Shown here: positions 1 to 14,745 of the stretch, piece after piece
Layout: every line of letters starts with the position of its first letter
How positions within the stretch are numbered: the stretch's first letter is position 1
From: a virus
Taxonomy: Duplodnaviria; Heunggongvirae; Uroviricota; Caudoviricetes
Length of the DNA: 18,936 bases
IMG/VR virus record: IMGVR_UViG_2529293138_000006
Location: 1-18,936 of that record
Strand: one strand, 5' to 3'
Position numbers and translations under genes: made by a program
Notes under the pieces: generated by a model
The model's database searches: none
Seen by the model: the letters and a program-made list of their open reading frames with translations, nothing else
Told to the model about the DNA's origin: nothing

Positions 1-1143
1 CTATGCTGTTTTGATATCTACGATAATCCAGTCTTTACCACGATCATCATTGTATCGGTCGGTCATTTTTCTGGATTTATGGCCTAACAACTTTTGCGTA
101 TCCAGACCCTGTTCCCGATATAACCGTTCTGACAGAGATCGCTGTTCATGAAATGTGGGCGCAGTTCCTTGCTCCCATTTTATGCCACATTTTTCCCGGG
201 CCTTTTTAAAAGCCGTTGTCAGAGTATTTGCAGAAACCTGGTCTCCTCTGTTTGCTTGAGAGGTAGTGTGACGGTAATGGACCAGATATTTACTAACAAC
301 AGCATCCCTGCACTGAGATATAACTTCACGAAGGGTAATATTCAGAGCATCGCATTTCAGGTTAAGCGGAATAGCAAGTTTTGAACCGGTTTTTTCCTGA
401 GTAATGTGCAACATGTCGTCCCATATATCAGAGAATTTCAAATTGCAGATATCGCCTAAACGTTGTCCAGTAACAAGAGCAAGTAGCATGCCGCATTTTA
501 AATAGGGCTGCCGTCTGCTTACGCTTTCAAATATTGCCTGCCATTCGAGCAGTGACAATCTTTGGCGGTTTACTCGATTTCGCGGTTGTTTTGTTGCCTG
601 CGCTGGGTTAAATCCTGGCGGAACATGTCCTGCGTGTTGTGCTTCTTTGAAGACGTCGATCAACACCATTCTCACGACTTGCGCCATCCTGTTATGACCT
701 TCAGCCTTTACAGCATCAATTATTTCGGCAATATCAAGTGCGGTAATATCCTTGAGGTGTTGCATTCCACAATGCTCACGGAAAAGACGAATGGGTTTGC
801 CTTTTTGCCGATAGGAGTTGGGTCTTAGTTCATTATGTTGCAGCCTGTCCTCCTGGATAGAAATATATTTATCAAGCCATTCTGTCACCGTAATGTCTGA
901 GCGCCTGCCTTTCATTCTTTCCAGACGCTCATTGACGCTTAATATTTGTCTGGTACGTTGTTCAGCAATAATGGTATTTGCTTCAGTAGCAACTTGTTTT
1001 GCTTCATTCTCATCAGTTCCTAAGCTATGAAAACGACCGGATAGTGGATGTTTGTATTGCCAATATACCTTTCCGGTTCGCTTATCTAATTTGCAATATA
1101 AATTGGGTATAGAGATTTTGTGAGATCGGGGTCTAGCAGCCAT
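1..1143 (-). CDS. int: Phage integrase, tyrosine recombinase of the lambda Int family (380 aa)
   Basis: Full-length ORF with the stop codon at window position 1-3. C-terminal motifs typical of lambda-family integrases are visible in the translation (LALVTGQRLGDICNLKFSDI, TFHEQRSLSERLY, LLGHKS). Overlaps the excisionase by 11 nt. Not identical to lambda Int. Confidence 0.9.
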   Translation of the reverse strand: MAARPRSHKISIPNLYCKLDKRTGKVYWQYKHPLSGRFHSLGTDENEAKQVATEANTIIAEQRTRQILSVNERLERMKGRRSDITVTEWLDKYISIQEDRLQHNELRPNSYRQKGKPIRLFREHCGMQHLKDITALDIAEIIDAVKAEGHNRMAQVVRMVLIDVFKEAQHAGHVPPGFNPAQATKQPRNRVNRQRLSLLEWQAIFESVSRRQPYLKCGMLLALVTGQRLGDICNLKFSDIWDDMLHITQEKTGSKLAIPLNLKCDALNITLREVISQCRDAVVSKYLVHYRHTTSQANRGDQVSANTLTTAFKKAREKCGIKWEQGTAPTFHEQRSLSERLYREQGLDTQKLLGHKSRKMTDRYNDDRGKDWIIVDIKTA

Positions 1144-1369
1144 CAGCGATTATCCGTTGGAGTTTTGGGTTTGCGTTTATTGGGAGTTGCGGTTCTGCAA
1201 GCGTTCCTACAAAACGGGAATTTCGGTCAATCATCCAGTAGCGACCAACTTTTATAGCGGGTGGGGCCATCATTTTCCCTTGCGCGTATTTTTTCAGAAC
1301 TCGCTCACTTGGTGCTAAGTCCCCAAATTCTTCTTTAGCCCAGTCCTGTAAAGTGATTAGTCGAGACAT
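1133..1369 (-). CDS. xis: Excisionase-like small DNA-binding protein (78 aa)
   Basis: Small ORF immediately upstream of and overlapping int, the usual xis position. Strong SD (GGAGGA) about 4 nt before the ATG. Identity to a specific excisionase family is inferred from position and size only. Confidence 0.7.
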   Translation of the reverse strand: MSRLITLQDWAKEEFGDLAPSERVLKKYAQGKMMAPPAIKVGRYWMIDRNSRFVGTLAEPQLPINANPKLQRIIADGC

Positions 1370-1508
1370 TTGTCCTCCTCTTAGCTGCTGAGGGAGTTTG
1401 TGACCGATATATCTGACATGATATTAAGCTCATGGCAGGTACATCTCTTGACTGGTCATAGAGATAAATTTAATGCTGAGAAATGCAGTATTGAATTTAT
1501 CAATTTTT

Positions 1509-1748
1509 CTATTTCCTGCGTATGGCACGTAACTTCTTAATGTGTTCTGCCGTTTCGATCTCTTCTGCTATCCGATCTGCATCAGCTTTATTCACAGGTT
1601 CAAAGTCATGATTAAAGCGGAACATGCTGGCGATACATGTTCTGCCTTTTCGGATGTAGTGAACTTTGTTGTGGGTAGAACGCAGGATTTTGCAGGGAGT
1701 GCCGTGGTGGTCGACGTACCAGGTGTTAGGAAAAATGATTCTGAACAT
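1509..1748 (-). CDS. Hypothetical protein (79 aa) in the int-proximal accessory region
   Basis: ORF with a GAGGTG SD 5 nt upstream of the ATG; same orientation as neighbouring early-left genes. Not recognised. Confidence 0.5.
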   Translation of the reverse strand: MFRIIFPNTWYVDHHGTPCKILRSTHNKVHYIRKGRTCIASMFRFNHDFEPVNKADADRIAEEIETAEHIKKLRAIRRK

Positions 1749-1795
1749 TTTTACACCTCAGTTGGACGATGTTGAAATTTGCTGCTTTGAGGCCA

Positions 1796-2014
1796 TCACA
1801 ATCCCCATTGTTTGTTCTTAAGTTCGATCTCCTCCTGGCAACTTGCACAAGTCCGACAACCCTGAACGACCAGGCGTCTTCGCTCATCTATCGGATCGCC
1901 ACACTCACAACAATGAGTGGCAGATACAGTCTGGTAGTTCAGACGACGCATTTTTATTGCTGTATAGCGCTGTAATTCTTCGATTTCTGATGCTGAATCA
2001 ATGATGTCTGCCAT
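1796..2014 (-). CDS. DksA/TraR-family C4 zinc-finger protein, lambda Orf73-like (72 aa)
   Basis: Four-cysteine motif CxxC-N17-CxxC (CECGDPIDERRRLVVQGCRTCASC) in a ~70 aa protein, characteristic of TraR/DksA-type RNA polymerase-binding proteins carried by lambdoid phages. Confidence 0.7.
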   Translation of the reverse strand: MADIIDSASEIEELQRYTAIKMRRLNYQTVSATHCCECGDPIDERRRLVVQGCRTCASCQEEIELKNKQWGL

Positions 2015-2111
2015 CTTCCATTAATCCCTGAATTGTTGGTTAATACGCTTGAGGGTGAATGCGAATAATAAAAAGGAGCCTGTAGCTCCCTGATGATTTT
2101 GCTTTTCATGT

Positions 2112-2327
2112 TCACCGTTCCTTAAAGACGCCGTTTAACATGCCGATTGCCAGACTTAAGTGAGTCGGTGTGAATCCCATCAGCGTTACCGTTTCGCGGT
2201 GCTTCTTCAGTACGCTACGGCAAATGTCATCGACGTTTTTATCCGGAAACTGCTGTCTGGCTTTTTTGATTTCAGAATTAGCCTGACGGGCAATACTGCG
2301 AAGGGCGTTTTCTTGCTGAGGTGTCAT
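2112..2327 (-). CDS. Lambda orf61-like hypothetical protein
   Basis: Translation from the internal Met (MTPQQENALRSIARQANSEIKKAR...) matches my recollection of lambda orf61. The six-frame ORF extends to 2393, but the upstream 22 codons look non-genuine. Start choice is uncertain. Confidence 0.6.
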   Translation of the reverse strand: MTPQQENALRSIARQANSEIKKARQQFPDKNVDDICRSVLKKHRETVTLMGFTPTHLSLAIGMLNGVFKER

Positions 2328-2403
2328 TGAACAAGTCCCATGTCGGCAAGCATAAGCACACAGAATATGAAGCCCGCTGCCAGAAAAATGCATTCAGTGG
2401 TTG

Positions 2404-2595
2404 TCATACCTGGTCTCTCTCATCTGCTTCTGCTTTCGCCACCATCATTTCCAGCTTTTGTGAAAGGGATGTGGCTAACGTATGAAATTCTTCGTCTGTT
2501 TCTGCTGGTATTGGCACAAACCTGACTCCAATTTGAGCAAGGCTATGTGCCATCTCAATGCTCATTCTTAACTCAACAGGAGATGCTTTGTGCAT
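2404..2595 (-). CDS. Lambda orf63-like hypothetical protein (63 aa)
   Basis: Translation [23 protein letters not shown]... closely matches remembered lambda orf63; position between orf61 and orf60a as in lambda. Confidence 0.65.
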   Translation of the reverse strand: MHKASPVELRMSIEMAHSLAQIGVRFVPIPAETDEEFHTLATSLSQKLEMMVAKAEADERDQV

Positions 2596-2756
2596 ACAGC
2601 CCCTCGTTTATTATTTATCTCCTCAGCCAGCCGCTGGGCTTTCAGTGGATTTTGGATAACAGAAAGGCCGGGAAATACCCAGCCTCGCTTTGTAACGGAG
2701 TAGACGAAAGTGATCGCACCTACCCGGATATTATCGTGAGGATGCTTCATCGCCAT
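2568..2756 (-). CDS. Lambda orf60a-like hypothetical protein (62 aa)
   Basis: Translation [26 protein letters not shown]... matches remembered lambda orf60a; lies immediately downstream of exo with a short overlap. Confidence 0.6.
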
Positions 2757-3427
2757 TGCTCCCCAAATACAAAACCAATTTCAGCCAGTGCCTCGTCCAT
2801 TTTTTCGATGAACTCCGGCACCATCTCGTCAAAACTCGCCATGTAATTTTCATCCCGCTCAACCACGACATAATGCAGGCCTTCACGCTTCATTCGTGGG
2901 TCATAGTTGGCAAAGTACCAGGCATCTTTTCGCGTCACCCACATGCTGTACTGCACCTGGGCCATGTAAGCCGACTTTATGGCCTCGAAACCACCGAGCC
3001 GGAATTTCATGAAATCCCGGGAGGTAAACGGGCATTTCAGTTCAAGGCCGTTGCCGTCACTGCATAAACCATCGGGAGAGCAGGCGGTGCGCATACTTTC
3101 GTCGCGATAGATGATCGGGGATTCAGTAACATTCACGCCGGAAGTGAACTCAAAGAGGGCTCTGGCGTCGTTCTCGTACTGTTTTCCCCAGGCCAGCGCC
3201 TTAGCGTTAACTTCCGGAGCCACACCGGTGCAAACCTCGGCAAGCAGGGTGTGGAAGTAGGACATTTTCATGTCAGGCCATTTCTTTCCGGAGCGGGGTT
3301 TTGCTATCACATTGTGAACTTCTGAAGCGGTGATGACGCCGAGCCGTAATTTGTGCCACGCATCATCCCCCTGTTCGACAGCTCTCACGTCGATCCCGGT
3401 ACGCTGCAGGATAATGTCCGGTGTCAT
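2747..3427 (-). CDS. exo: Lambda exonuclease (Red-alpha, 5'-3' dsDNA exonuclease), 226 aa
   Basis: Translation is near-identical to lambda Exo along its whole length ([72 protein letters not shown]...GFVFGEQWR). Confidence 0.95.
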
Positions 3428-4209
3428 GCAGCCACCTTCTGTTCAGAGGCTTTCTGTTTCAGGAATCCAAGAGCTTTCACTGCTTCGGCCTGTGTCAGTT
3501 CTGACGATGCGCGAATGTCGCGGCGAAATATCTGGGAACAGAGCGGCAATAAGTCGTCATCCCATGTTTTGTCCAGGGCAATCAGCAGAGTGTTAATCTC
3601 CTGCATGGTTTCATCGTTAACCGGAGTGATGTCGCGTTCCGGCTGACGTTCTGCAGTGTATGCGGTATTTTCGACAATGCGCTCGGCTTCATCCTTGTCA
3701 TAGATACCCGCAAATCCGAAGGCCAGACGGGCACACTGAATCATGGCTTTATGACGTAACATCCGTTTGGGATGCGACTGCCACGGTCCGGTGATTTCTC
3801 TGCCTTCGCGGGTTTTGAATGGTTCGCGGCGACATTCATCCATCCACTCGGTAACGCAGATAGGATGATTGCGGTCCTTGCGGTAAATCCGGCATGTGCA
3901 GGATTCATTGTCCTGCTCAAAGTCCATACCATCAAACTGCTGGTTTTCATTGATGATGCGGGACCAGCCATCAACGCCCACCACCGGAACGATGCCGTTC
4001 TGCTTATCAGGGAAGGCGTAAATTTCTTTCGTCCACGGATTAAGGCCGTACTGGTTGGCGACGATCAACAATGCGATGAACTGCGCATCGCTGGCATCAC
4101 CTTTAAATGCCGTCTGGCGAAGAGTGGTGATCAGTTCCTGTGGGTCGACAGAATCCATGCCGACACGTTCAGCCAGCTTCCCAGCCAGCGTTGCGAGTGC
4201 AGTACTCAT
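3424..4209 (-). CDS. bet: Lambda Bet (Red-beta) single-strand annealing protein, 261 aa
   Basis: Translation matches lambda Bet along its length; stop overlaps the exo start, as in lambda. Confidence 0.95.
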
Positions 4210-4214
4210 TCGTT

Positions 4215-4511
4215 TTATACCTCTGAATCAATATCAACCTGATGGTGAGCAATGGTTTCAACCATGTACCGGATGTGTTCCGCCATGCGCTCCTGAAACT
4301 CAACATCGTCATCAAATGCACGGGTAATGGCTTTTTTGCTGGCCCCGTGGCGTTGCAAATGATCGATGCATAGCGATTCAAACAGGTGCTGGGGCAGGCC
4401 TTTTTCCATGTCGTCTGCCAGTTCTGCCTCTTTCTCTTCATGGGCGATCTGCTGGTAGTGACGCGCCCAGCTCTGAGCCTCAAGACGATCCTGAATGTAA
4501 TAAGCGTTCAT
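4215..4511 (-). CDS. gam: Gam (short form, GamS) RecBCD inhibitor, 98 aa
   Basis: Translation [60 protein letters not shown]... matches lambda Gam. AGGAG SD upstream of the ATG. The upstream frame contains TAA stops, so only the short form is encoded. Confidence 0.93.
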
Positions 4512-4586
4512 GGCTGAACTCCTGAAAATGGCTGTGAAAATATCGCCCGCGAAATGCCAGGCTGATTAGGTAAACAGGAAAGGGGA

Positions 4587-4793
4587 TTAGTGATTCAGAC
4601 CGTTGCCGCGCCCGTCGAGAAAAACTTCCACGAGCAAGTCACGGGTATAAGTGCGCTCGATGCCGCGATGCAGATAAAGCCGTCCGCGTAAATTAGCTGA
4701 TGCAGTCCAGGTACCATCTTTGTGTTTGACCAGCATTCCTGGCATGACCGCGCCGCGATTAACGGTCTGCGTTCCGTAATGTTGATGAACCAT
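4587..4793 (-). CDS. Hypothetical small protein (68 aa from the internal start; the ORF extends to 4877) at the kil/cIII position
   Basis: First ORF downstream of the predicted PL. The internal ATG at 4793 has an excellent SD (AGGAG, 5 nt spacer); the longer 96 aa form starting at 4877 has a poor SD. Sequence not recognised as lambda Kil, CIII or N. Confidence 0.5.
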   Translation of the reverse strand: MVHQHYGTQTVNRGAVMPGMLVKHKDGTWTASANLRGRLYLHRGIERTYTRDLLVEVFLDGRGNGLNH

Positions 4794-5070
4794 AAAAACT
4801 CCTGCCCGTAAGCTGGGCTGCTGAACATATAGAGACTTCTGCGCGTATTCAGGCGGTGGATGGCCGCCGGTTGTCATAACTAAGCCGCCTCGTTGAAGCG
4901 ACTAAGGTATGAAATGTTGAGTTGATTTCAGCTGGTCACACCGACGTTCACGCGTCCGTTTCACCCCTCGCACTCCCCGAAGCCTGCTGAAATTCAAACT
5001 GCGGATCTAAGCGGTCATCGCAACGGTGAATCAGGTGGTTGCCGTATCGTTGTGTTGTTGCGATGAACTT

Positions 5071-5099
5071 ATTTAAAACTATAGTTGTTTTACCGTCAA
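5071..5099 (-). promoter_or_regulatory. Candidate PL early-left promoter (-35 TTGACG, 17 nt spacer, -10 TTAAAT on the minus strand)
   Basis: Read on the minus strand: GTTGTTGACGG taaaacaactatagt TTAAAT. The -35 is embedded in a GTTGTT...AACAAC operator palindrome, mirroring the PR arrangement. Confidence 0.5.
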
Positions 5100-5127
5100 C
5101 AACAAAAGTTGTTTTATTGGTTGTTTT
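5082..5127. promoter_or_regulatory. OL-type operator cluster (GTTGTT-N8-AACAAC and AACAAC-N4-GTTGTT palindromes plus further GTTGTT half-sites)
   Basis: Repeated GTTGTT/AACAAC half-sites as inverted repeats, the same half-site as the perfect palindrome at OR (6876-6900). Confidence 0.5.
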
Positions 5128-5237
5128 AGATATAACTGGTTGTATTTAGGATGGATTTATTTTGTGACTTGCATCGCATAGCGATAACTGAAGTGAGGTC
5201 GTGGTGGTTTTTTGAACGGTGTGTGATGAGGGGAGGG

Positions 5238-5268
5238 CAAAAGAAAACCCGGCACGGTGGCCGGGTTT
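5238..5268 (-). terminator. Rho-independent terminator ending the leftward repressor/cargo operon (t-imm analog)
   Basis: Perfect 6 bp GC stem (CCCGGC / GCCGGG) with a 6 nt loop; on the minus strand it is followed by TTTTCTTTTG. Lies about 75 nt downstream of the stop of the 5343..5786 gene. Confidence 0.65.
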
Positions 5269-5342
5269 AGATGATTGGTTAAGAGCGAGGGTAATGGGGA
5301 ATGAAAAATCGCTTTACCTAATGCAAGGGTGCGAGCATTTTC

Positions 5343-5786
5343 TTAAGCACTAAAGAAAAAGTACATTGATAGCTTATAAAGTCCTGTTCCTGCAGCGATG
5401 ATTGCTGGAACACCAAGCAATACCGCAAGCTTTGCGTCTGAAATCTTTCTATCGACAGCATCACTTGATGGCTTGTTTGTTAAGGATTCTTTTATAGAGT
5501 CCAGACGTGCAAGAATAGTTATCATATTTTTGTCGATAGCTTTAACGTCTGTTTTAAGTTCATCAACGTCTCGTTTGATATGAGCAACATCGGACTCCAG
5601 TTTTGCAACTTTTTCAGGCATGTTATCACTCCCAGACCCACTGCTACCACTTGATTGTAGCATGTCCCATCTTTTTCCAGATATACCTGCTAGCTGGGAA
5701 GACGCACTGGAGTGCAAACAAAATGATTTTGCCGCCTTTGCAATTTTATCATTTAGGTTTGGAGCTTCGTAATAATCGTGTTTCAT
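5343..5786 (-). CDS. Hypothetical C-terminally membrane-anchored coiled-coil protein (147 aa; alternative start at 5621 gives 92 aa) in the rexB-equivalent position
   Basis: Single predicted C-terminal TM helix (LAVLLGVPAIIAAGTGLYKL) preceded by a heptad-like charged stretch (EKVAKLESDVAHIKRDVDELKTDVKAIDKNMITILARLDSIKESL). Internal ATG at 5621 has a GGGAG SD with a 7 nt spacer. AT-rich relative to flanks. Same strand as and downstream of the repressor. Confidence 0.6.
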   Translation of the reverse strand: MKHDYYEAPNLNDKIAKAAKSFCLHSSASSQLAGISGKRWDMLQSSGSSGSGSDNMPEKVAKLESDVAHIKRDVDELKTDVKAIDKNMITILARLDSIKESLTNKPSSDAVDRKISDAKLAVLLGVPAIIAAGTGLYKLSMYFFFSA

Positions 5787-5798
5787 AATTAATTACGA

Positions 5799-6062
5799 TT
5801 AGTTTGTTTTAGCTTTGTCATGCTGGTCGCGAATGAAGTCAGCCAATTTAAGCATCAATTCTTCGGGCATTCTAATGGTTGCAATGTTGTACTTTATGTT
5901 CTCAACATCGTCACTTTCATCAACAGGCCATTCAGTTACATTATGAAAAAAAGAAATTGAACCTAGGCGCTGAGAGCCGTCACCAAACGAAGAGTAGCCA
6001 AACGCGTCGGCGTATGCATCGACACAGTTATTTGATTTTTTAACAAGTGTTTTATTACTCAT
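5799..6062 (-). CDS. Hypothetical acidic soluble protein (87 aa) in the rexA-equivalent position
   Basis: ORF with a good SD (GGGAAAGG) about 6 nt upstream of the ATG; ends 12 nt before the next ORF (operon-like). AT-rich. Not recognised. Confidence 0.6.
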   Translation of the reverse strand: MSNKTLVKKSNNCVDAYADAFGYSSFGDGSQRLGSISFFHNVTEWPVDESDDVENIKYNIATIRMPEELMLKLADFIRDQHDKAKTN

Positions 6063-6144
6063 TTTTTGCCTTTCCCGTAATGTTATTTTTTATAAGGTAT
6101 TTTCTTCAGCGTATTACCCAAAAGCCTCATCAACACGCGGCTGA

Positions 6145-6834
6145 TTATCCGTGTTTTCTGTACGTCTGCGGCATGCTCCCAATAACCTTACCGAAGATGA
6201 ACACCCGGTTCATCTCGTCTTTCTCGATCGGGTCCCACGGTGAGTAGCTTTTGTTATCAGAGATGACCAGCAGCTTATCCTTCATCATTTGCAGGCGCTT
6301 TACATGGGCTGTGTCGTCGTACAGAAACGCATAGATACCATCACCGTCGAAAGATTTAACTGTGATATCAACGAACAGCAGATCACCTGGTTCGATCGTT
6401 CCTGACATGCTGTCACCACGCACGTTAATGATGCGGATATTTTCCGCCTTCCTACCATCGAACATATGACGAGCATCGTCAAACGAGTACTCAACCGAGC
6501 GTAGAACTTCTACAAACTCACGGTTGATGACTCCCGGCCCAGCACTGACTTCTATATCAAGAACGTCAATCTTGAAGTATTTGGAATGGCTGACAGTTGA
6601 TTGTATTGGTTGCACTGTACTGTCTGACATATTTCCAACGCCAGAAGATAACCATTCTGCGCGCACACCCAAAGCGTTCGCGATCTCCACGATTTTAGTT
6701 GTTTGATTAGCTTTCCCTGTTTCGATTTTCTGAATAGCAGCTTGGCTAACCCCGACCAAATCCCCAAGCGCCTTTTGTGTAAGGCCTCGCGCTAATCTGG
6801 CTTCTTTAAGTCTTTCTGAGAGTGTTGTTTTCAT
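6145..6834 (-). CDS. Prophage repressor, cI-type (N-terminal XRE-family HTH, C-terminal S24 LexA-like autopeptidase), 229 aa
   Basis: HTH region (LKEARLARGLTQKALGDLVGVSQAAIQKIETGK), an Ala-Gly cleavage site (EVSAGPG), the catalytic Ser motif (GDSMSG) and a downstream Lys (HVKRL). Start chosen at MKTTLSERL (6834) rather than the ORF-track start at 6900. Divergent from the Cro-like gene. Confidence 0.9.
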   Translation of the reverse strand: MKTTLSERLKEARLARGLTQKALGDLVGVSQAAIQKIETGKANQTTKIVEIANALGVRAEWLSSGVGNMSDSTVQPIQSTVSHSKYFKIDVLDIEVSAGPGVINREFVEVLRSVEYSFDDARHMFDGRKAENIRIINVRGDSMSGTIEPGDLLFVDITVKSFDGDGIYAFLYDDTAHVKRLQMMKDKLLVISDNKSYSPWDPIEKDEMNRVFIFGKVIGSMPQTYRKHG

Positions 6835-6875
6835 AGTCCAAATGTACAACCAAGGTTTTATTTCATCAAACGAAA

Positions 6876-6900
6876 ATGGTTGTTGACTAAAAACAACCAT
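6876..6900. promoter_or_regulatory. OR operator: perfect palindrome ATGGTTGTT-N7-AACAACCAT
   Basis: A 9 bp perfect inverted repeat with a 7 bp spacer, lying between the divergent repressor and cro-like genes and overlapping the -35 of the predicted PR. A weaker related site is at 6845-6858 (ACAACCaaGGTTTT). Confidence 0.6.
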
Positions 6901-6911
6901 AGTTTTAATCT
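6883..6911 (+). promoter_or_regulatory. Candidate PR promoter (-35 TTGACT, 17 nt spacer, -10 TAATCT)
   Basis: Hexamers with 17 nt spacing upstream of the Cro-like gene; GGAGG SD at 6927-6931 precedes its ATG at 6939. Confidence 0.5.
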
Positions 6912-6938
6912 TGATTCAAATTAACCACGGAGGTTGTT

Positions 6939-7169
6939 ATGAACCCAGCTATCAAAACAGCGATCAATATCGTTGGTTCACAAAAGAAACTGGGCGCTGC
7001 TTGCGAAGTTTCACAGCAGGCCGTCTATAAGTGGCTTCACAACAAAGCAAAGGTATCCCCTGAACATGTCGGCAGCATTGTTACGGCTACTGGTGGAGTA
7101 GTGAAGGCATACCAGATTCGCCCGGATCTTCCGAAGTTGTTTCCACACACCGAAAAGAACGCAGCTTAA
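6939..7169 (+). CDS. Cro-like / YdaS-family small HTH regulator (76 aa)
   Basis: Small ORF divergent from the repressor with a strong SD. A helix-turn-helix-like segment (QKKLGAACEVSQQAVYKWLHNK) is present. Role inferred from position. Confidence 0.8.
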   Translation: MNPAIKTAINIVGSQKKLGAACEVSQQAVYKWLHNKAKVSPEHVGSIVTATGGVVKAYQIRPDLPKLFPHTEKNAA

Positions 7170-7181
7170 ATTTCCATTTCA

Positions 7182-7194
7182 CGCTCTTTAACAA
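7182..7194 (+). promoter_or_regulatory. boxA-like element (CGCTCTTTAACAA) at the nutR position
   Basis: Matches the NusB/NusE boxA consensus (GCTCTTTAACAA) 12 nt after the Cro-like stop codon. No convincing boxB hairpin follows. Confidence 0.45.
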
Positions 7195-7238
7195 TAAGCA
7201 ATCAACTTAACAGTCAATTCAAACTAAAGGAGTCAATT

Positions 7239-7982
7239 ATGCAACCACTTACATACCAACAGACTAGCGGATTTAGCCCGACTGCGGTGATAAATCGTTC
7301 TCAAACAAAACAGGTGCCAGGCCACGAAAAAATCCGTGATGCCGTCCGCGCTTGGTCGGCTGAAGATAATCAGGATGTCGTTGCCACACTCATTGTGAAT
7401 GAGTATCGGGAGCAGGGCGGCGGCACCATCGATTTCCCTGATGATGTCAGCCGTGCACGCCAGAAGCTGTTCCGCTTCCTCGATAACAAATTCGATTCTG
7501 AAAAATACCGAAATAACGTGCGTGAACTGACCCCGGCAATTCTGGCGGTACTACCGCTGGAATATCGCGGCCACCTGGTTGAGCAGGATAGCTTCATGGC
7601 TCGGCTGGCTGAAATGGAAAAGGAACTCAGTGAGGCAAAGCAGGCGGTCATTCTCAACGCACCACGCCACCAGAAACTGAAGGAGATGAGTGAAGGCATT
7701 GTGTCGATGTTTCGAGTGGACCCGGATCTGGCTGGTCCATTGATGGCGATGGTCACCACCATGCTGGGGGCAATATGGCAGGTTCAAAAATGGCGAAAGT
7801 CGGTCTGCGGGAACAGAACCGACTTTCAGGTGCAAATCGTAACACACTCATTGCGGGAGGAATTATGGCAAACACTGCTGAGATATTCAATTTTCCAGTG
7901 CCGGATGCGGCACAAAAGGAGCCGCGCGTGGCAGATCTCGATGATTATACGCGCATTGCAAATGAGTTGCTGGAAGCTGTAA
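7239..7982 (+). CDS. Hypothetical protein at the cII position (possibly a CII/YdaT-like regulator); C-terminal extent uncertain
   Basis: ORF starting with a good SD (AAAGGAG) after the boxA region. The last ~70 codons overlap the O-like start by 118 nt and have an atypical W/Q/R/C-rich composition, suggesting either a shorter true gene or a frameshift. Confidence 0.45.
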   Translation: MQPLTYQQTSGFSPTAVINRSQTKQVPGHEKIRDAVRAWSAEDNQDVVATLIVNEYREQGGGTIDFPDDVSRARQKLFRFLDNKFDSEKYRNNVRELTPAILAVLPLEYRGHLVEQDSFMARLAEMEKELSEAKQAVILNAPRHQKLKEMSEGIVSMFRVDPDLAGPLMAMVTTMLGAIWQVQKWRKSVCGNRTDFQVQIVTHSLREELWQTLLRYSIFQCRMRHKRSRAWQISMIIRALQMSCWKL

Positions 7983-8791
7983 TGCTGGCCGGATTAACAC
8001 AGCACCAGCTTCTGGTCTTCCTGGCTGTCATGCGCAAAACATATGGCTTTAATAAAAAACTGGATTGGGTGAGCAACGAGCAACTTTCCGAGTTGACCGG
8101 GATATTGCCGCACAAGTGTTCTGCTGCAAAAAGTGTTCTGGTAAAGCGTGGGATTTTTATTCAGAGCGGGCGGAATATCGGCATTAATAATGTGGTCAGT
8201 GAATGGTCAACATTACCCGAATCAGGTAAGAAAAATAAAGTTTACCTGAAAGAGGTAAATTTACCTGAATCAGGTAAGAAAAGTTTACCCAAATCAGGTA
8301 AAGGCACTTACCCGAATCAGGTAAACACAAAAGACAAACTAACAAAAGACAATATAAAACCTTATTCGTCCGAGAATTCTGGCGAATCCTCTGACCTGCC
8401 AGAAAACGACCTTCCTGTGGTGAAAGCGGATGCTGCGATTCAGAGCGGCAGCAAGTGGGGGACAGCAGAAGACCTGACCGCCGCAGAGTGGATGTTTGAC
8501 ATGGTGAAGACCATCGCGCCATCAGCCAGAAAACCGAATTTTGCAGGGTGGGCTAACGATATCCGCCTGATGCGTGAACGTGACGGACGTAACCACCGCG
8601 ACATGTGCGTGCTGTTCCGCTGGGCATGCCAGGACAACTTCTGGTCCGGTAACGTGCTAAGTCCGGCCAAACTCCGCGACAAGTGGACCCAACTCGAAAT
8701 CAACCGTAACAAGCAACAGGCAGGCGTGACAGCTAGCAAACCAAAACTCGACCTGACAAACACAGACTGGATTTACGGGGTGGATCTATGA
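7865..8791 (+). CDS. O: Replication initiator, lambda O-like (308 aa), with an origin embedded in the coding sequence
   Basis: N-terminus MANTAEIFNFPV...ADLDDYTRIANELLEA...RKTYGFNKK resembles lambda O (MTNTAKILNF...). The C-terminal ~100 aa (NFAGWANDIRLMRERDGRNHRDMCVLFRWACQDNFWSGN...WIYGVDL) matches the lambda O P-interaction domain. GGAGG SD precedes the ATG at 7865. Confidence 0.88.
   Translation: MANTAEIFNFPVPDAAQKEPRVADLDDYTRIANELLEAVMLAGLTQHQLLVFLAVMRKTYGFNKKLDWVSNEQLSELTGILPHKCSAAKSVLVKRGIFIQSGRNIGINNVVSEWSTLPESGKKNKVYLKEVNLPESGKKSLPKSGKGTYPNQVNTKDKLTKDNIKPYSSENSGESSDLPENDLPVVKADAAIQSGSKWGTAEDLTAAEWMFDMVKTIAPSARKPNFAGWANDIRLMRERDGRNHRDMCVLFRWACQDNFWSGNVLSPAKLRDKWTQLEINRNKQQAGVTASKPKLDLTNTDWIYGVDL
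8213..8365. repeat. Replication origin: five ~18 bp iterons (TTACCCGAATCAGGTAAG type, each an internal palindrome) followed by an A/T-rich tract
   Basis: Iteron copies at 8213-8230, 8242-8258 (degenerate), 8261-8278, 8285-8302 and 8308-8325, followed by the AT-rich 8326-8365 (cacaaaagacaaactaacaaaagacaatataaaacc). Classic lambdoid ori architecture inside O. Confidence 0.8.
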
Positions 8792-9489
8792 AAAACATCG
8801 CCGCACAGATGATTAACTTTGACCGTGAGCAGATGCGTCGGATCGCCAACAACATGCCGGAACAGTACGACGAAAAGCCTCAGGTACAGCAGGTAGCGCA
8901 GATCATCAATGGTGTGTTCAGCCAGTTACTGGCAACTTTCCCGGCGAGCCTGGCTAACCGTGACCAGAATGAACTGAACGAAATCCGCCGCCAGTGGGTT
9001 CTGGCTTTCCGGGAAAACGGGATCACCACAATGGAACAGGTTAACGCTGGAATGCGCGTAGCCCGTCGGCAGAATCGACCATTTCTGCCATCACCCGGGC
9101 AGTTTGTTGCATGGTGCCGGGAAGAAGCATCCGTTATCGCCGGACTGCCAAACGTCAGCGAGCTGGTTGATATGGTTTACGAGTATTGCCGGAAGCGAGG
9201 CCTGTATCCGGATGCGGAGTCTTATCCGTGGAAATCAAACGCGCACTACTGGCTGGTTACCAACCTGTATCAGAACATGCGGGCCAATGCGCTTACTGAT
9301 GCGGAATTACGCCGTAAGGCCGCAGATGAGCTTGTCCATATGACTGCGAGAATTAACCGTGGTGAGGCGATCCCTGAACCAGTAAAACAACTTCCTGTTA
9401 TGGGCGGTAGACCTCTAAATCGTGCACAGGCTCTGGCGAAGATCGCAGAAATTAAAGCTAAGTTCGGACTGAAAGGAGCAAGTGTATGA
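8788..9489 (+). CDS. P: Lambda P replication protein (DnaB helicase loader), 233 aa
   Basis: Translation is near-identical to lambda P over its full length; ATG overlaps the O stop (ATGA). Confidence 0.95.
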   Translation: MKNIAAQMINFDREQMRRIANNMPEQYDEKPQVQQVAQIINGVFSQLLATFPASLANRDQNELNEIRRQWVLAFRENGITTMEQVNAGMRVARRQNRPFLPSPGQFVAWCREEASVIAGLPNVSELVDMVYEYCRKRGLYPDAESYPWKSNAHYWLVTNLYQNMRANALTDAELRRKAADELVHMTARINRGEAIPEPVKQLPVMGGRPLNRAQALAKIAEIKAKFGLKGASV

Positions 9490-9788
9490 CGGGCAAAGAG
9501 GCAATTATTCATTACCTGGGGACGCATAAGAGCTTCTGTGCACAGGACGTTGCCGCGGTAACAGGCGCAACCGTAACCAGCATAAATCAGGCTGCGGCTA
9601 AAATGGCGCGGGCAGGAATCCTGGTCGTTGATGGTAAGGTCTGGCGAACGGTGTATTACCGGTTCGCTACCAGAGAAGAACGGGAAGGAAAGGTGAGCAC
9701 GAATCTGATTTTTAAGGAGTGTCGCCAGAGTGCCGCGATGAAACGCGTATTGAGGGTATATAAAAGAACATCAATGGGTACACAATGA
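9486..9788 (+). CDS. ren: Ren (Rex exclusion protein), 100 aa
   Basis: Translation MTGKEAIIHYLGTHKSFCAQDVAAVTGATVTSINQAAAKMARAGILVVDGKVWRTVYYRFATREEREGK... matches lambda Ren; overlaps the P stop. Confidence 0.9.
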   Translation: MTGKEAIIHYLGTHKSFCAQDVAAVTGATVTSINQAAAKMARAGILVVDGKVWRTVYYRFATREEREGKVSTNLIFKECRQSAAMKRVLRVYKRTSMGTQ

Positions 9789-9855
9789 TGAAACAGGTGA
9801 GTTGATTTCAAACTGTAGTACAATTCTCTCCAGTTTGAACAGGAAAGAATATGCT

Positions 9856-10188
9856 ATGAACCCTTATATTTATCTTGGTGGTGCAATACTTGCAGAGGTC
9901 ATTGGTACAACCTTAATGAAGTTTTCAGAAGGTTTTACACGGTTATGGCCATCTGTTGGTACAATTATTTGTTATTGTGCATCATTCTGGTTATTAGCTC
10001 AGACGCTGGCTTATATTCCTACAGGGATTGCTTATGCTATCTGGTCAGGAGTCGGTATTGTCCTGATTAGCTTACTGTCATGGGGATTTTTCGGCCAACG
10101 GCTGGACCTGCCAGCCATTATAGGCATGATGTTGATTTGTGCCGGTGTGTTGGTTATTAATTTATTGTCACGAAGCACACCACATTAA
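9856..10188 (+). CDS. emrE: EmrE small multidrug resistance (SMR) efflux transporter, 110 aa
   Basis: Translation from MNPYIYLGGAILAEVIGTTLMKFSEGFTRLWPSVGTIICYCASFWLLAQTLAYIPTGIAYAIWSGVGIVLISLLSWGFFGQRLDL... matches E. coli EmrE. Four TM helices are evident. Same location (after ren) as in the DLP12 prophage. Confidence 0.93.
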   Translation: MNPYIYLGGAILAEVIGTTLMKFSEGFTRLWPSVGTIICYCASFWLLAQTLAYIPTGIAYAIWSGVGIVLISLLSWGFFGQRLDLPAIIGMMLICAGVLVINLLSRSTPH

Positions 10189-10217
10189 AATAATTTGTTT
10201 CTAAACGACTAAAATAT

Positions 10218-10250
10218 GGAGGCTCTTATATTTATATGAGCCTCGTTTTA
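10218..10250 (+). terminator. Rho-independent terminator downstream of emrE
   Basis: Perfect 7 bp stem GAGGCTC...GAGCCTC with a 12 nt AT loop, followed by GTTTTATGCTTTTTG. Confidence 0.6.
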
Positions 10251-10442
10251 TGCTTTTTGTTAATGTCTTTATTTTTTATGTATTCTTTTGTGCTTTCAAG
10301 ATTATGGCGTAAGAAAATTGCAATACGATTATTGTTGTATATTCAAGATAATGTGACCTTAATTGTCTTTTTAAATAAAAATTAAACAAAAATTATATCC
10401 CACCACTAAGGTTTATAAAAGCATACGTTAGCAGGTGTCACC

Positions 10443-11969
10443 ATGAAAAAAGCCATAGCATATATGCGATTTTCATCACCAGGTCAGATGTCTGGCGACT
10501 CATTAAACCGACAGAGAAGACTTATTGCTGAATGGTTAAAGGTAAATAGTGATTATTATCTTGATACCATAACATATGAAGATTTAGGATTAAGTGCATT
10601 CAAAGGAAAGCATGCACAATCAGGAGCTTTTTCGGAATTTTTAGATGCTATAGAGCATGGTTATATATTGCCAGGAACTACATTGTTAGTTGAAAGTCTG
10701 GACAGACTTTCAAGAGAAAAAGTCGGTGAAGCGATTGAGCGTCTGAAATTGATTTTGAATCACGGTATTGATGTTATAACTCTTTGCGATAATACAGTCT
10801 ATAATATTGACTCTTTGAATGATCCATATTCATTAATAAAAGCCATACTTATAGCACAAAGGGCAAATGAAGAAAGCGAGATAAAGTCAAGTCGGGTTAA
10901 ATTATCATGGAAGAAAAAACGGCAGGATGCACTGGAGTCAGGCACGATTATGACGGCGTCTTGTCCGAGATGGCTCTCCTTAGATGACAAAAGAACGGCT
11001 TTTGTTCCAGACCCCGACAGGGTGAAAACTATTGAGCTAATTTTTAAACTCAGGATGGAAAGGCGCTCATTGAATGCAATAGCCAAGTATTTAAATGATC
11101 ATGCTGTAAAGAATTTCTCAGGAAAAGAAAGTGCATGGGGACCTTCTGTAATTGAAAAATTATTAGCGAATAAAGCTCTGATAGGTATATGCGTACCTTC
11201 ATATCGTGCAAGAGGTAAAGGAATAAGTGAAATCGCTGGCTATTATCCCAGAGTCATATCAGATGATTTGTTTTACGCTGTGCAGGAAATTCGGTTGGCA
11301 CCTTTTGGTATTAGCAATAGTAGCAAAAATCCTATGTTGATAAATCTACTTCGAACAGTTATGAAGTGCGAGGCTTGTGGTAATACCATGATTGTTCATG
11401 CGGTATCTGGAAGTTTGCATGGCTATTATGTTTGTCCGATGAGAAGACTGCATCGATGTGACAGGCCATCAATAAAGAGAGATTTGGTTGATTATAATAT
11501 CATTAATGAGTTGCTTTTTAATTGTAGTAAAATCCAACCAGTTGAAAACAAGAAAGATGCTAATGAAACTTTAGAGTTGAAAATTATTGAGCTCCAGATG
11601 AAAATTAATAATTTAATTGCTGCATTATCTGTTGCGCCTGAAGTTACCGCTATAGCAGAAAAAATCAGAGTATTAGATAAGGAATTACGAAGGGCTTCTG
11701 TATCATTAAAAACTTTGAAGAGTAAAGCGGTGAGCTCACTTGGTGATTTTCATGCTATTGACTTAACCAGTAAAAATGGGCGAGAGCTATGTCGTACACT
11801 TGCCTATAAAACATTCGAAAAAATCATAATCAATACAGATAATAAAACCTGTGATATCTATTTTATGAATGGCATTGTTTTTAAACACTACCCTTTAATG
11901 AAAACAATATCCGCCCAGCAGGCGATAAGTACTCTCAAATATATGGTTGATGGTGAGGTTTATTTTTGA
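10443..11969 (+). CDS. ybcK: Large serine recombinase (DLP12 YbcK-like), 508 aa
   Basis: N-terminal resolvase-type catalytic region with the serine motif (AIAYMRFSSPGQ), a long recombinase domain and a Cys-rich segment (CEACGN...CPMRRLHRC) consistent with a zinc ribbon. AT-rich codon usage. Confidence 0.85.
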   Translation: MKKAIAYMRFSSPGQMSGDSLNRQRRLIAEWLKVNSDYYLDTITYEDLGLSAFKGKHAQSGAFSEFLDAIEHGYILPGTTLLVESLDRLSREKVGEAIERLKLILNHGIDVITLCDNTVYNIDSLNDPYSLIKAILIAQRANEESEIKSSRVKLSWKKKRQDALESGTIMTASCPRWLSLDDKRTAFVPDPDRVKTIELIFKLRMERRSLNAIAKYLNDHAVKNFSGKESAWGPSVIEKLLANKALIGICVPSYRARGKGISEIAGYYPRVISDDLFYAVQEIRLAPFGISNSSKNPMLINLLRTVMKCEACGNTMIVHAVSGSLHGYYVCPMRRLHRCDRPSIKRDLVDYNIINELLFNCSKIQPVENKKDANETLELKIIELQMKINNLIAALSVAPEVTAIAEKIRVLDKELRRASVSLKTLKSKAVSSLGDFHAIDLTSKNGRELCRTLAYKTFEKIIINTDNKTCDIYFMNGIVFKHYPLMKTISAQQAISTLKYMVDGEVYF

Positions 11970-12081
11970 GTAATAATCACTTTTTTCAACCGTGCTATAG
12001 TAAGAAAGTTAGGTAAGTACAATAAAATTATCTATCCTGAACGAAGCGTCCTGAGCTATGGTTTTACTATAGGGACTGCCA

Positions 12082-12411
12082 ATGGATGCTGGCGTTCTCG
12101 TTCTAGCAGTTCAACAATCCCCAATCACAAAACAATTCACTGATAACGAACTTTGCACACTCGCCTGGTTATGGCGAGCAGGGAATGTGATGTTAATTGC
12201 CTACCAGAACGTTACTCATCTTCTTCAGGATGCGGAGCATGGTGAAGCTGGTCGCTTCACTTCCATCGAGCAAGAATATCCCCAGATACTCACCAGAGCG
12301 CGAGCAATCCTCGCCAGAGAAACGGCACATGTAAAATTCCAGCCGTGGCAGGATGATAAGTGGAGTCGAGTATTGCCACATTTGCGTCAGAATGTTATTA
12401 AACAACGTTAG
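12082..12411 (+). CDS. Hypothetical protein (109 aa)
   Basis: ORF only; weak SD. Not recognised. Could be a gene remnant. Confidence 0.35.
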   Translation: MDAGVLVLAVQQSPITKQFTDNELCTLAWLWRAGNVMLIAYQNVTHLLQDAEHGEAGRFTSIEQEYPQILTRARAILARETAHVKFQPWQDDKWSRVLPHLRQNVIKQR

Positions 12412-12470
12412 CTACTGTGTCTCTCCAATTTAGCTAACATATGGATTCATAAGAAAAAGGAGCTTTTGCC

Positions 12471-12722
12471 ATGATGTCCTTCACCAAATGTAAATTAATG
12501 CACAGCCATAAAACTAGCGTAAATGCAGCGCTCTTGGACGATACGAAATTAGTTGTAGAGAGGGATCTCCATTTTCTTCGTGAGTTATACATATCAAGCC
12601 CAGAAGAATTTGTCGGACATTGGGTTTATGCAAATGAGCCAATATTTCATGAACATCCACTGTCTGTTGGCCTTTCTGGTATTGTCTATCACAAGGTTAT
12701 TGATGAAATTGAAAAATCATAA
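12471..12722 (+). CDS. Hypothetical protein (83 aa)
   Basis: ORF with a good SD (AAGGAG, ~8 nt spacer). Not recognised. Confidence 0.45.
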   Translation: MMSFTKCKLMHSHKTSVNAALLDDTKLVVERDLHFLRELYISSPEEFVGHWVYANEPIFHEHPLSVGLSGIVYHKVIDEIEKS

Positions 12723-12892
12723 TCAATAAGCAATAATACCGTCACCGTTGGCCTGAACACCCTGCGGTGACTTCTGCGCATATGATTGGGAAATTATATG
12801 CGACCACAAGTTAAACTCCTCGCCTTGCCACAGATGCAGAAATGCACCTGCGTTTTTTTGCATCCAACGTTTGACCTCTGCGGAGGTGAAGC

Positions 12893-13348
12893 GTGAACCT
12901 CCCACAAGACGGCATCAAATTACATCGCGGCAACTTCACCGCTATCGGCCAGCAGATCCAGCCTTATCTGGAGGACGGAAAATGCTTTCGCATGGTGCTT
13001 AAACCGTGGCGTGAGAAACGCAGTCTTTCCCAGAATGCACTCAGCCACATGTGGTACAGCGAAATCAGTGAATACCTCATCAGCAAGGGTAAAACGTTCG
13101 CCACTCCAGCTTGGGTAAAAGATGCTCTCAAACACACATATCTCGGTTATGAAACCAAAGACCTGGTTGATGTCGTAACCGGTGATATCACCACTATCCA
13201 GTCGTTACGCCATACCTCCGATCTTGATACCGGAGAGATGTATGTCTTCCTGTGTAAGGTTGAAGCCTGGGCGATGAATATTGGCTGCCACCTGACTATT
13301 CCGCAGAGCTGCGAGTTCCAGCTGCTGCGCGACAAGCAGGAGGCGTAA
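12893..13348 (+). CDS. ybcN: NinB-family recombination protein (DLP12 YbcN-like), 151 aa, GTG start
   Basis: Translation matches remembered DLP12 YbcN ([19 protein letters not shown]...). GGAGG SD 6 nt upstream of the GTG. Confidence 0.85.
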
Positions 13349-13518
13349 TGGCTACACCGCTTATTCGTGTCATGAACGGACACATCTACAAAGTACCAAA
13401 TCGTCGTAAGCGTAAACCTGAGCTGAAGCCATCCGAAATACCAACACTGCTCGGATATACCGCCAGCCTGGTTGATAAAAAATGGTTGCGACTGGCAGCA
13501 AGGAGGAATCATGGCTGA
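13348..13518 (+). CDS. ninE: NinE-like small basic protein (56 aa)
   Basis: Manually translated: [59 protein letters not shown] overlaps the ybcN stop (TAATG). Below the ORF-track size cutoff. Confidence 0.6.
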   Translation: MATPLIRVMNGHIYKVPNRRKRKPELKPSEIPTLLGYTASLVDKKWLRLAARRNHG

Positions 13519-13801
13519 TTTGAGAAAAGCAGCGCGTAGTCGGGAATGCCAGGTAAGAATCCCTGGCGTATGTAATGGCAACCCTGAAACGTCTGTACTG
13601 GCACATATCCGGCTGACTGGATTGTGCGGCACCGGTACCAAACCGCCAGACTTGATTGCCACCATTGCATGTTCTGCCTGCCACGACGAAATCGACCGCC
13701 GCACACATTTTGTCGATGCTGCATATGCAAAAGAATGCGCGCTGGAAGGTATGGCGAGAACACAGGTTATCTGGCTGAAAGAGGGGGTTATTAAGGCGTG
13801 A
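13511..13801 (+). CDS. ybcO: YbcO-like protein (DUF1364 family, putative nuclease), 96 aa
   Basis: Start chosen at [10 protein letters not shown] with an AGGAGG SD; Cys-rich translation ([11 protein letters not shown]...CSACHDEID) matches remembered DLP12 YbcO. Confidence 0.75.
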
Positions 13802-14160
13802 ATACCTACAGCATCACATTACCTTGGCCTCCGAGCAATAATCGCTACTACCGGCATAATCGCGGGCGCACGCACATCAGCGCAGAAGGGCAGGCATACC
13901 GTGATAACGTCGCCCGAATCATTAAAGGCTCAATGCTGGATATCGGCCTGGCTATTCCTGTGAAAATCCGCATAGAGTGCCACATGCCGGATCGCCGTCG
14001 CCGTGACCTGGATAATCTGCAAAAAGCCGCTTTTGACGCACTCACTAAAGCAGGTTTCTGGCTGGATGATGAGCTGGTCGTTGATTACCGCGTTGTGAAG
14101 ATGCCTGTTACCAAAGGTGGGAAGCTGGAACTGACCATCACTGAACTGGGAGATGAATGA
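13798..14160 (+). CDS. rusA: RusA Holliday junction resolvase, 120 aa, GTG start
   Basis: Translation [26 protein letters not shown]...[27 protein letters not shown]... matches E. coli RusA. Confidence 0.9.
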
Positions 14161-14297
14161 TGTTTGAGTCTTGTATGGCAGAACGTCTTCGCCGCCGCTG
14201 GGTGCGCCTGCGCTTATATCGTTTCCCCGGTTCTGTTTTGACCGATTACCGAATACTGAAGAATTACGCCAAAACCCTGACAGGAGCAGGAGTATGA
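14157..14297 (+). CDS. ylcG: YlcG-like small protein (46 aa)
   Basis: Manually translated: [46 protein letters not shown]. Overlaps the rusA stop. Matches remembered DLP12 YlcG. Confidence 0.6.
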
Positions 14298-14382
14298 AGT
14301 CAGAGATAACAATCAACTAATACTGTTTTGTTGATTTTTGCTTGTAATTGGCGTTCTGGTCTGATTTTTGTGGAGTAAGTTG

Positions 14383-14727: not shown

Positions 14728-14745
14728 GCGCCAATTAAGGCGCTT
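14726..14745. terminator. Hairpin between the convergent Q-like and minus-strand cargo genes (possible bidirectional terminator)
   Basis: AAGCGCC-AATTAA-GGCGCTT inverted repeat overlapping both stop codons. T-tracts are short, so efficiency is uncertain. Confidence 0.4.

Follow-up and report, generated by a model that had tools for sequence, protein, structure and literature searches.

We analysed the leader of the early left operon in a stretch of 18,936 nucleotides (hereafter the window; positions 1 to 18,936 of the IMG/VR virus record IMGVR_UViG_2529293138_000006), which is a lambdoid prophage and a lambda/phi80 mosaic of the Bievrevirus type. The leader is the untranslated 5′ part of the early left transcript and spans about 270 nt, from the predicted +1 of the promoter PL near position 5064 to the AUG of kil at 4793. 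An earlier note on this DNA had given a leader of about 180 nt, which is corrected here by placing the kil start at ATG 4793. The results showed that the leader is non-coding, starts at the +1 of PL, is built of modules and is under purifying selection, and that it contains neither a nut site nor a put RNA. The explanation that we favour, although tentatively, is that it is a cis-regulatory 5′ untranslated region (5′ UTR) of kil-gam-bet-exo in a left operon whose dependence on N was lost by deletion of the N-nutL-tL1A block. From the promoter to the first clear gene, the features are as follows.

5099-5071, minus strand: promoter PL, with the -35 element TTGACG (5099-5094), a 17-nt spacer and the -10 element TTAAAT (5076-5071).
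5064-5017, minus strand: 5′ stem, in which AUCGCAAC (5064-5057) pairs with GUUGCGAU (5024-5017) around a CA-rich, G-poor loop of 32 nt.
5016-4915, minus strand: core ("module 1"), G-rich and non-coding, with the invariant 33-nt block GGACGCGUGAACGUCGGUGUGACCAGCUGAAAU at 4957-4925.
4914-4845, minus strand: module 2, an extended hairpin whose outer stem, UCAUA/UAUGA, lies over AUG 4877, the start of a small open reading frame (ORF).
4903-4883, minus strand: inner stem of module 2, 9 bp, AGUCGCUUC-AAC-GAGGCGGCU, with GAGG in its 3′ arm.
4587-4793, minus strand: kil, 68 aa, a cell-division inhibitor of the phi80/Rac type and the first clear gene of the PL operon.

PL is embedded in repeated AAAACAAC operator motifs, and motifs of the same type are found at PR (6876-6910). 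Conservation among phages of differing immunity begins exactly at 5064, the predicted +1, and in some phages at 5030. From 5064 onward, the leader is kept at 95-100% identity in 16 phage records of several immunity types, and it is found at the same identity in 2222 of 5426 complete E. coli genomes (~40%); among 60 matches listed from these genomes, no annotated feature lay under the leader match. In Salmonella phage UPF_BP1, a near-identical PL with its operators (GTTGTTGAC...ACAACCATAGTTTTAAAT, in the first 60 nt of the fetched stretch) is followed by a bona fide putL, and therefore the modules downstream of one type of PL have been swapped exactly at the +1.

The folding z-score of the 5′ stem was -2.89, and one of 200 shuffles was equally stable. 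In variants from another immunity type, both arm positions are similar and still pair, and the loop is replaced; this similarity of the arms may be derived from the operators, and the folds of these variants are not exceptional in themselves. A similarity to the PL starts of phi80, S9-5 and phiEt88 over the first ~20 nt was not significant (nhmmer E = 9.5), and the first 60 nt of the leader hold 20 C and 11 G.

The nucleotide diversity (pi) of the core was measured in 53 unique loci, with the third codon positions of gam and bet from the same loci as the yardstick. The core had a pi of 0.024, with 16 of 116 sites segregating (a density of 0.14), compared with a pi of 0.055-0.057 and ~37% segregating sites at the third codon positions, and the 33-nt block at 4957-4925 showed no variation at all. 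With less diversity than synonymous sites and with an invariant block, the core is constrained at the nucleotide level. At its 3′ end (4915-4924) there is a copy-number polymorphism of TCAAC, with two or three copies depending on the prophage. The core has so far been found only in E. coli prophages, and a search with a core 21-mer against one genome from each of 185,579 species returned only two chance matches (Streptomyces and Acidobacteriota). No homology of the core to Rfam families, put, lambda or phi80 was found: Rfam gave no match for the leader or the boxA region described below, either at the gathering threshold or at E ≤ 10, and an nhmmer profile of module 1 run against lambda, phi80, HK639, HK225, ENT1 and the put loci gave a best E of 2, which is not significant.

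The core folded no better than its shuffles (z = 0.03 for 4926-5006; z = 0.33 for 4926-5066, including the 5′ stem). Its consensus fold consists of two irregular adjacent hairpins of ~76 nt, and within the family no two-sided change was found among 27 variants (95% identity), an alignment without power to test structure. The long-range inverted repeat TTTCAGC/GCTGAAA that had been pointed out in the leader is real and extends to 8 bp (4925-4932 with 4986-4993), but it is at chance level, a 7-bp inverted repeat being present in 49% of shuffles of the 185-nt segment; the domain that it encloses is the one with a folding z-score of 0.03. An ops/RfaH element was also considered in the leader; only GGCGG matched, and the candidate was dismissed by eye.

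A different account of the same conservation is that the core is a functionless, decaying remnant of an ancestral nutL/N region, similar among prophages because it is young and because it hitch-hikes beside the immunity cassette as a recombination linker. The leader does lie exactly at a mosaic boundary, and the return of only two unrelated matches in the 21-mer scan fits this account. There is also an 18/22 identity to the lambda N-leader just downstream of the boxB of nutL, at the same distance from +1, and a score as high was reached by 5 of 300 shuffles. An Arg-rich frame with KRTRERR, which resembles N motifs and is now broken by TAG and frameshifts, would fit a remnant as well. The match to lambda was, however, not significant with nhmmer (E = 3), and a density of segregating sites of 0.14 against ~0.37 at synonymous sites of the adjacent genes, together with an unchanged 33-nt block, is not what decay would leave. 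The leader is, moreover, retained in phages of several immunity types that are on record as isolates with plating hosts. We consider decay without function to be rather unlikely.

Module 2 had a folding z-score of -5.03, and none of 200 shuffles was equally stable. It is also present in phi80, HK225, Enterobacter phage ENT1, HK639, CobraSix and S9-5 (in the fetched stretches at 2501-2560 in phi80, ~105-160 in HK639, ~2990-3057 in HK225 and 3490-3560 in ENT1). Its identity to three phi80 records was 84-86% by blastn, and in two of these records tL1 terminator annotations lie on or beside the matched segment. Folded independently, the window, ENT1, phi80 and HK639 gave one architecture with differing inner-stem sequences, that is, with compensatory changes, and in the alignment HK225 has the inner stem of the window with a different loop. 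After the stem follows the invariant start of the small ORF, AUGACAACCGGCGGCCAUCCACCG (MTTGGHPP), which contains a GGCGG/CCGCC hairpin (4867-4851). Across phages, the first 24 nt of this ORF, MTTGGHPP(P/T), are near-invariant while the hairpin stem covaries freely, and in the fetched phi80 record the hairpin and small ORF do not form a feature of their own. The hairpin and the small ORF may together act as a translational or Rho-coupling gate for the delayed-early genes.

In phi80, module 2 stands between two terminators: directly upstream is tL1A, which is Rho-independent and comes after gene N, and downstream is tL1B, which depends on Rho. A GC hairpin with a U-run is likewise found directly upstream of module 2 in HK225, ENT1 and the put-type HK639. 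Only in the group of the window is tL1A absent upstream of module 2; it is replaced by ...AAAUCAACUCAACAUUU, module 1 abuts module 2, and a scan found no terminator-like site in 4915-5064. The absence of a terminator that N-type and put-type relatives have kept argues that the left operon escaped N-dependence by deletion and not by means of a new antiterminator. With N, nutL and tL1A lost, we infer that kil-gam-bet-exo is read directly from PL. Like the leader, the nutL-N-tL1 region of lambda and phi80 lies between PL and the delayed-early recombination genes; the resemblance to phi80 lies in module 2, homologous to the segment just after tL1A, and in the phi80-type kil, and that to lambda in the weak 18/22 patch, whose counterpart in the lambda leader lies past boxB with an equal offset. 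Unlike the lambda and phi80 regions, the leader has no N, boxA, boxB or tL1A, and ~150 nt stand in place of roughly 730 nt of phi80.

The small gene behind the leader, which had been left unrecognised, was identified as kil (PHROG 294, E = 1e-38, over residues 20-96 of a 96-aa ORF). This ORF begins at ATG 4877 and is an in-frame upstream extension of kil. The likely start of kil is ATG 4793, which has AGGAG 5 nt upstream and agrees with the 207-nt annotations in HK225, 4A7 and the RefSeq O157:H7 genome. Beyond kil, the left operon continues as follows.

4215-4511, minus strand: gam.
3424-4209, minus strand: bet.
2747-3427, minus strand: exo.
2664-2686, minus strand: terminator-like hairpin with U-tract just downstream of exo, 9 pairs (6 GC), in DNA 97% identical to lambda.
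Between exo and int, minus strand: homologues of lambda orf61, orf63 and orf60a, a TraR-like gene and xis.
2073-2091, minus strand: second terminator-like hairpin, AGGGAGCUACAGGCUCCUU then UUUAUUAUU, between the orf61 homologue and the TraR-like gene.
1-1143, minus strand: int.

Between 5064 and the end of exo, only weak terminator-like sites were found in the scan. The first strong sites of this kind past PL are the hairpins at 2686-2664 and 2091-2073, the latter on the path from PL to xis and int. Both lie in lambda DNA, positions 1819-4593 of the window corresponding to lambda 30418-33193 at 96.6-97.6% identity; the terminators that had been expected on the left operon are thus present as lambda-derived hairpins further downstream. 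The hairpin at 2664-2686 occupies what we take to be the position of lambda tL3.

On the explanation that we favour, the lineage would have lost the whole N-nutL-tL1A block and with it the left N-dependence. After derepression, transcription from PL would then cross the leader and enter kil-gam-bet-exo without meeting a strong terminator, and the leader would act in cis as a regulatory 5′ UTR and not as a processive antiterminator. The 5′-terminal stem might stabilise the RNA, and the long C-rich, G-poor untranslated stretch might make it accessible to Rho. By burying the AUG and the GAGG of the small upstream ORF, the conserved hairpin could set the level of translation and thereby both the protection from Rho and the expression of kil. 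For the genes beyond the lambda terminator after exo (xis and int), expression would require leak-through or other promoters. Cardinale and colleagues reportedly found in 2008 that Rho silences the kil gene of rac in E. coli K-12, which we count in favour of this explanation. The leader, a long 5′ UTR with a hairpin over the start of a small upstream ORF ahead of a cell-division inhibitor, recalls the long structured leaders with an upstream ORF before toxic genes (hok/mok type, Rho-silenced kilR of rac); no antisense RNA or homology to them was found, and the resemblance is architectural only.

Several observations weigh against a regulatory 5′ UTR as the full explanation. The core at 5016-4915 is constrained and yet is given no specific role by it, and an invariant block of 33 nt would not be expected in a mere UTR. 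The core also folds no better than shuffles and shows no compensatory change within the family. Lambda terminators remain both downstream of exo and upstream of Q; since the group grows without N, a mechanism of read-through may still be needed.

The absence of N and cIII, claimed in the earlier note, was confirmed for the window and for its Bievrevirus relatives 4A7 and Perceval. Neither turned up when the ORFs taken to be genes on both early operons, out to Q, were scanned with Pfam and PHROG, and a six-frame scan of the window for Arg-rich stretches revealed no N. The lambda homology ends at 4593, inside lambda kil, and the lambda segment from N to cIII is therefore absent. In the fetched stretches of PhiR5_1, Perceval and 4A7, no N is annotated. 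The statement that no ORF of at least 60 aa lies between 5064 and 4878 also held, and all coordinates given before were correct on recheck. One shorter frame required attention.

4997-4902, minus strand: Arg-rich ORF with a TTG start, MNFSRLRGVRGVKRTRERRCDQLKSTQHFIP, ending in TAG, in the reading frame of Kil; rejected as a gene.

An N-like frame beginning at a non-canonical codon had been named as the finding that would overturn the absence of N, and this frame has such a start together with KRTRERR. It could encode a genuine antiterminator protein of the N kind, by itself or, in CAG variants, fused to Kil (136 aa): it lies directly downstream of PL, and its motif resembles the arginine-rich motifs of lambda and P22 N. 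For its variation, 80 IMG/VR loci were collected by Kil, 64 of which had the leader core and yielded 41 unique variants. The end codon is CAG in 31 of the 41, most of them keeping the 136-aa frame, and some depositors annotate the long form as Kil (in Perceval, which has CAG instead of TAG, as a 139-aa "Kil"). The coding tests nevertheless failed. The end codon is TAG in 10 of the 41 variants, and 6 of the 41 carry frame-breaking indels (the 5-nt TCAAC insertion in four, 1-nt indels in two). The 14 variable sites are spread 5/4/5 over the codon positions, without codon periodicity, and the TTG at 4997 has no Shine-Dalgarno sequence. Arg-rich stretches are common in off-frames, ten comparable ones being found in the six-frame translation of the window. 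Among 5.8 billion proteins searched, Kil homologues at 73-86% identity had lengths of 74-102 aa and matched the Kil core only, without the extension. Nor is there a boxB-like hairpin on either operon as a partner for an Arg-rich protein. We conclude that the TTG ORF at 4997-4902 is not a gene, and an N-like function for it is very improbable.

The suggestion that the leader is a put-like RNA was examined next to the put RNAs of HK022 type. Because Rfam has no put family (the putL of HK022 itself gave no match), a put covariance model was built here. The alignment was rebuilt from phage records and comprised 10 RNAs (left and right copies from HK022, phiEt88 and S9-5, and one each from UPF_BP1, CobraSix, HK639 and PdC23); it showed good covariation, and the consensus consisted of a two-stem structure with an invariant GAACGGC loop, GUCGG, GGCG and CAAUG. 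With filters off, the model recovered HK022 putL at 94.5 bits and putR at 74 bits. At E ≤ 10, it found nothing in 4794-5066, near the boxA (7182), or in PhiR5_1 and Perceval. The similarity of the leader to HK022 was at chance level by BLAST and local alignment, and a blastn-short search of the window for a second copy of the leader on the right operon gave only chance matches. Without a match to a model that recovers both HK022 sites and without a right copy, the put-like interpretation was not sustained. A putR-type second copy is not universal among put phages, the fetched HK639 stretch annotating only a putL-like RNA.

The leader does share traits with the put RNAs of HK022, HK639, phiEt88, S9-5 and CobraSix. 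All are non-coding, lie at or near the +1 of PL and belong to lambdoid phages without N; the conserved leader, beginning at 5064, is immediately downstream of the early promoter start. The phi80-type tL1-region module downstream is also common to put-type phages and the window. In contrast to put RNAs, the leader lacks the invariant GAACGGC and CAAUG motifs and a right-operon copy, and in contrast to put-type phages, the window has no terminator upstream of the tL1-region module. In the same folding analysis, the HK022 putL control gave an unremarkable z-score of -0.8, and weak folding statistics therefore do not exclude an RNA that binds RNA polymerase.

It is accordingly worth weighing whether the core is an antiterminator RNA of a new, cis-acting class, an analogue and not a homologue of put. 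Such an RNA would fold as it emerges from the polymerase at PL, stay bound, and carry the complex past the terminators after exo to xis and int. The core leader begins at the +1 of PL, as putL does in HK022 (PMC9378689), and in UPF_BP1 a near-identical PL is joined to putL at the same position. The N-less group includes recorded isolates with plating hosts (PMC9928086 for Perceval), and lambda-derived terminator hairpins are retained downstream. Purifying selection with a 33-nt invariant block and a consensus fold of two adjacent irregular hairpins would suit an RNA of this kind, and put has been invoked for N-less lambdoid phages by Casjens and colleagues (PMC12315714). These points are offset by the lack of a put-model match, of invariant put motifs and of a right-operon copy, and by folding at z ~0 without covariation. 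Furthermore, the loss of tL1A would be unnecessary were an antiterminator present, and N-type and put-type relatives keep a terminator upstream of module 2. On balance we regard this account as unlikely, though ahead of a mere remnant. The wider claim, that the ~150-nt core from the +1 of PL is an unrecognised class of polymerase-modifying antiterminator RNA of N-less Bievrevirus-type prophages (~40% of sequenced E. coli), coupled in some immunity types to a right operon that uses an rrn-style Nus mechanism with boxA alone, seems to us a shade more doubtful.

The rightward side of the immunity region carries the following features.

6939-7169, plus strand: cro, of the YdaS type.
7182-7195, plus strand: rrn-type boxA, CGCUCUUUAACAAU, between cro and the cII/YdaT-like gene, with no boxB.
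From 7239, plus strand: YdaT/cII-like gene, followed by O, P, ren and a nin-like region.

The consensus boxA that had been reported after cro without a boxB was verified. The letters read CGCTCTTTAACAA at 7182-7194 and GCTCTTTAACAAT at 7183-7195, and the consensus GCUCUUUAACAA is an exact 12-mer at 7183-7194 on the plus strand, its sole copy in the window. The 13-mer GCTCTTTAACAAT matches the E. coli rrn leader boxA at 13 of 13 positions; the site is the only one in the window with at most one mismatch to that 13-mer, and an exact 13-mer has a chance expectation of ~6e-4 for the window. The 44 nt downstream of the boxA are unstructured (minimum free energy (MFE) -0.8 kcal/mol), compared with -14 kcal/mol for the boxB hairpin of lambda nutR by the same procedure. 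A string similar to the TCAAC repeat at the end of the left leader, AAUCAACU(C/U)AAC, follows the boxA (7200-7212, plus strand), so that both early transcripts carry such a string; the match is at chance level (E = 15).

The immunity cassette extends from ~5160 (or 5064) to 7238, and homology with Perceval-type phages resumes exactly at the start of cII. The boxA falls within these limits. Every locus that has this cro has the identical boxA, and loci with a different cro type lack it; among the latter are Perceval and 4A7, which carry the same leader. Since it is tied to this immunity cassette, the boxA is independent of the left leader and is not the general solution of the group. The left leader has no boxA at up to three mismatches, and boxA-only Nus antitermination, as proposed earlier, therefore cannot explain the left operon; Perceval and 4A7, with the leader and no boxA, speak against it too. 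Antitermination of the boxA type is plausible only on the right operon, and only in this cassette. The likeness to the rrn boxA with its NusB-NusE-SuhB complex lies in GCUCUUUAACAAU, which matches the E. coli rrn boxA, and in an unstructured, G-poor untranslated gap. Unlike the rrn leader boxA, that of the phage stands ~290 nt downstream of PR, after a translated gene, and it is confined to this immunity cassette, being absent from sister phages and from the left leader.

On the deletion account, the right boxA would be a genuine NusB/NusE site of the cassette, most likely shielding the untranslated gap between cro and cII and the downstream operon from Rho. Alternatively, the Nus complex recruited by the boxA might repress the cII-like gene at the level of translation and so tune the choice between lysis and lysogeny, with no antitermination involved. 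A precedent is suhB, which is repressed through boxA and Nus factors (PMC5725501); here the 5′ untranslated gap holds a consensus boxA at 44 nt from the start codon of the downstream cII-like gene, and in the MFE fold this boxA can form a weak pairing with the Shine-Dalgarno sequence of cII. That pairing is no better than in shuffles (z = -0.28), and the position after cro is the site of lambdoid nutR and, in lambda, of the action of the Rho-dependent tR1. Repression of the suhB kind is, in our judgement, improbable, and anti-Rho protection of the right operon appears the more likely role.

The remaining landmarks of the prophage are the cI-type repressor gene and Q.

6145-6900, minus strand: cI-type repressor gene, past PL and two moron genes.
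14368-14727, plus strand: Q.

Among the phage records nearest to the window are 4A7 and Perceval, both of the genus Bievrevirus, as well as the PhiR series. Members of the group are found in an O157:H7 strain, as the LF82 prophage Perceval and as the infant-gut phage 4A7, and several are on record as isolated phages with plating hosts; Perceval is an active, particle-producing prophage of strain LF82 (PMC9928086).

Several side observations were made on the immunity region and the right arm. An ~85-bp block at 5160-5245, between the terminator of the immunity operon and the operators, is kept where the operators differ (e.g. in Perceval) and holds the palindrome ATCGCTATGCGAT; this block and, on the other side, the leader flank the immunity-specific operator segment like a recombination linker. 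Upstream of PL, CGCTCTTAACCAA (5275-5287, minus strand) contains the exact lambda boxA octamer CGCTCTTA (5287-5280), which lies 11 nt upstream of the terminator hairpin (5268-5245) that ends the cI-moron operon. As a boxA this octamer was judged a chance occurrence, being found only in three loci with this moron cassette, with ~0.6 8-mer matches expected. The two moron genes (5343-6062, minus strand) encode proteins of 147 aa (PHROG 3556) and 87 aa (PHROG 4231), both from families of unknown function, and sit between cI and PL, the position of rexAB. Relatives have HipA-like, SIR2 or ASCH genes there, and the position looks like a variable slot, possibly for defence genes. The stop of the cII/YdaT-like gene at 7776-7778, which in PhiR5_1 is a TGA overlapping the O start (ATGA), reads TGG in the window, and the ORF therefore continues to 7982; it codes for 247 aa, against 179 aa otherwise, and overlaps O. 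A serine recombinase of 508 aa (PHROG 95 and 125) is encoded in the nin region between ren and ninB (10443-11969, plus strand); it is also present in phage 4A7 and is therefore a stable feature of the group and not a recent insertion.

Taken together, the earlier proposal of N-independent antitermination stood in its observations, namely the absence of N and cIII, the terminators and the boxA without boxB, and did not stand in the put-like RNA, the long-range repeat or boxA-only antitermination on the left. The leader is a widespread, constrained and unannotated element in a phage group without a known early antiterminator. How RNA polymerase passes the early terminators in N-less lambdoid phages is an acknowledged gap, for which genome papers offer the guess "perhaps put-like" (PMC12315714), and one very common group of E. 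coli prophages is shown here to have neither N nor put. An antiterminator RNA in the leader would be of high interest if true. Conserved, unannotated candidates are now defined: the invariant 33-nt block, the consensus boxA, and the covarying hairpin with its small upstream ORF, which is found in phi80, HK639, HK225 and ENT1 as well. The loss of the first terminator and these conserved pieces bear on how resident prophages control toxic kil and their Red recombination genes.

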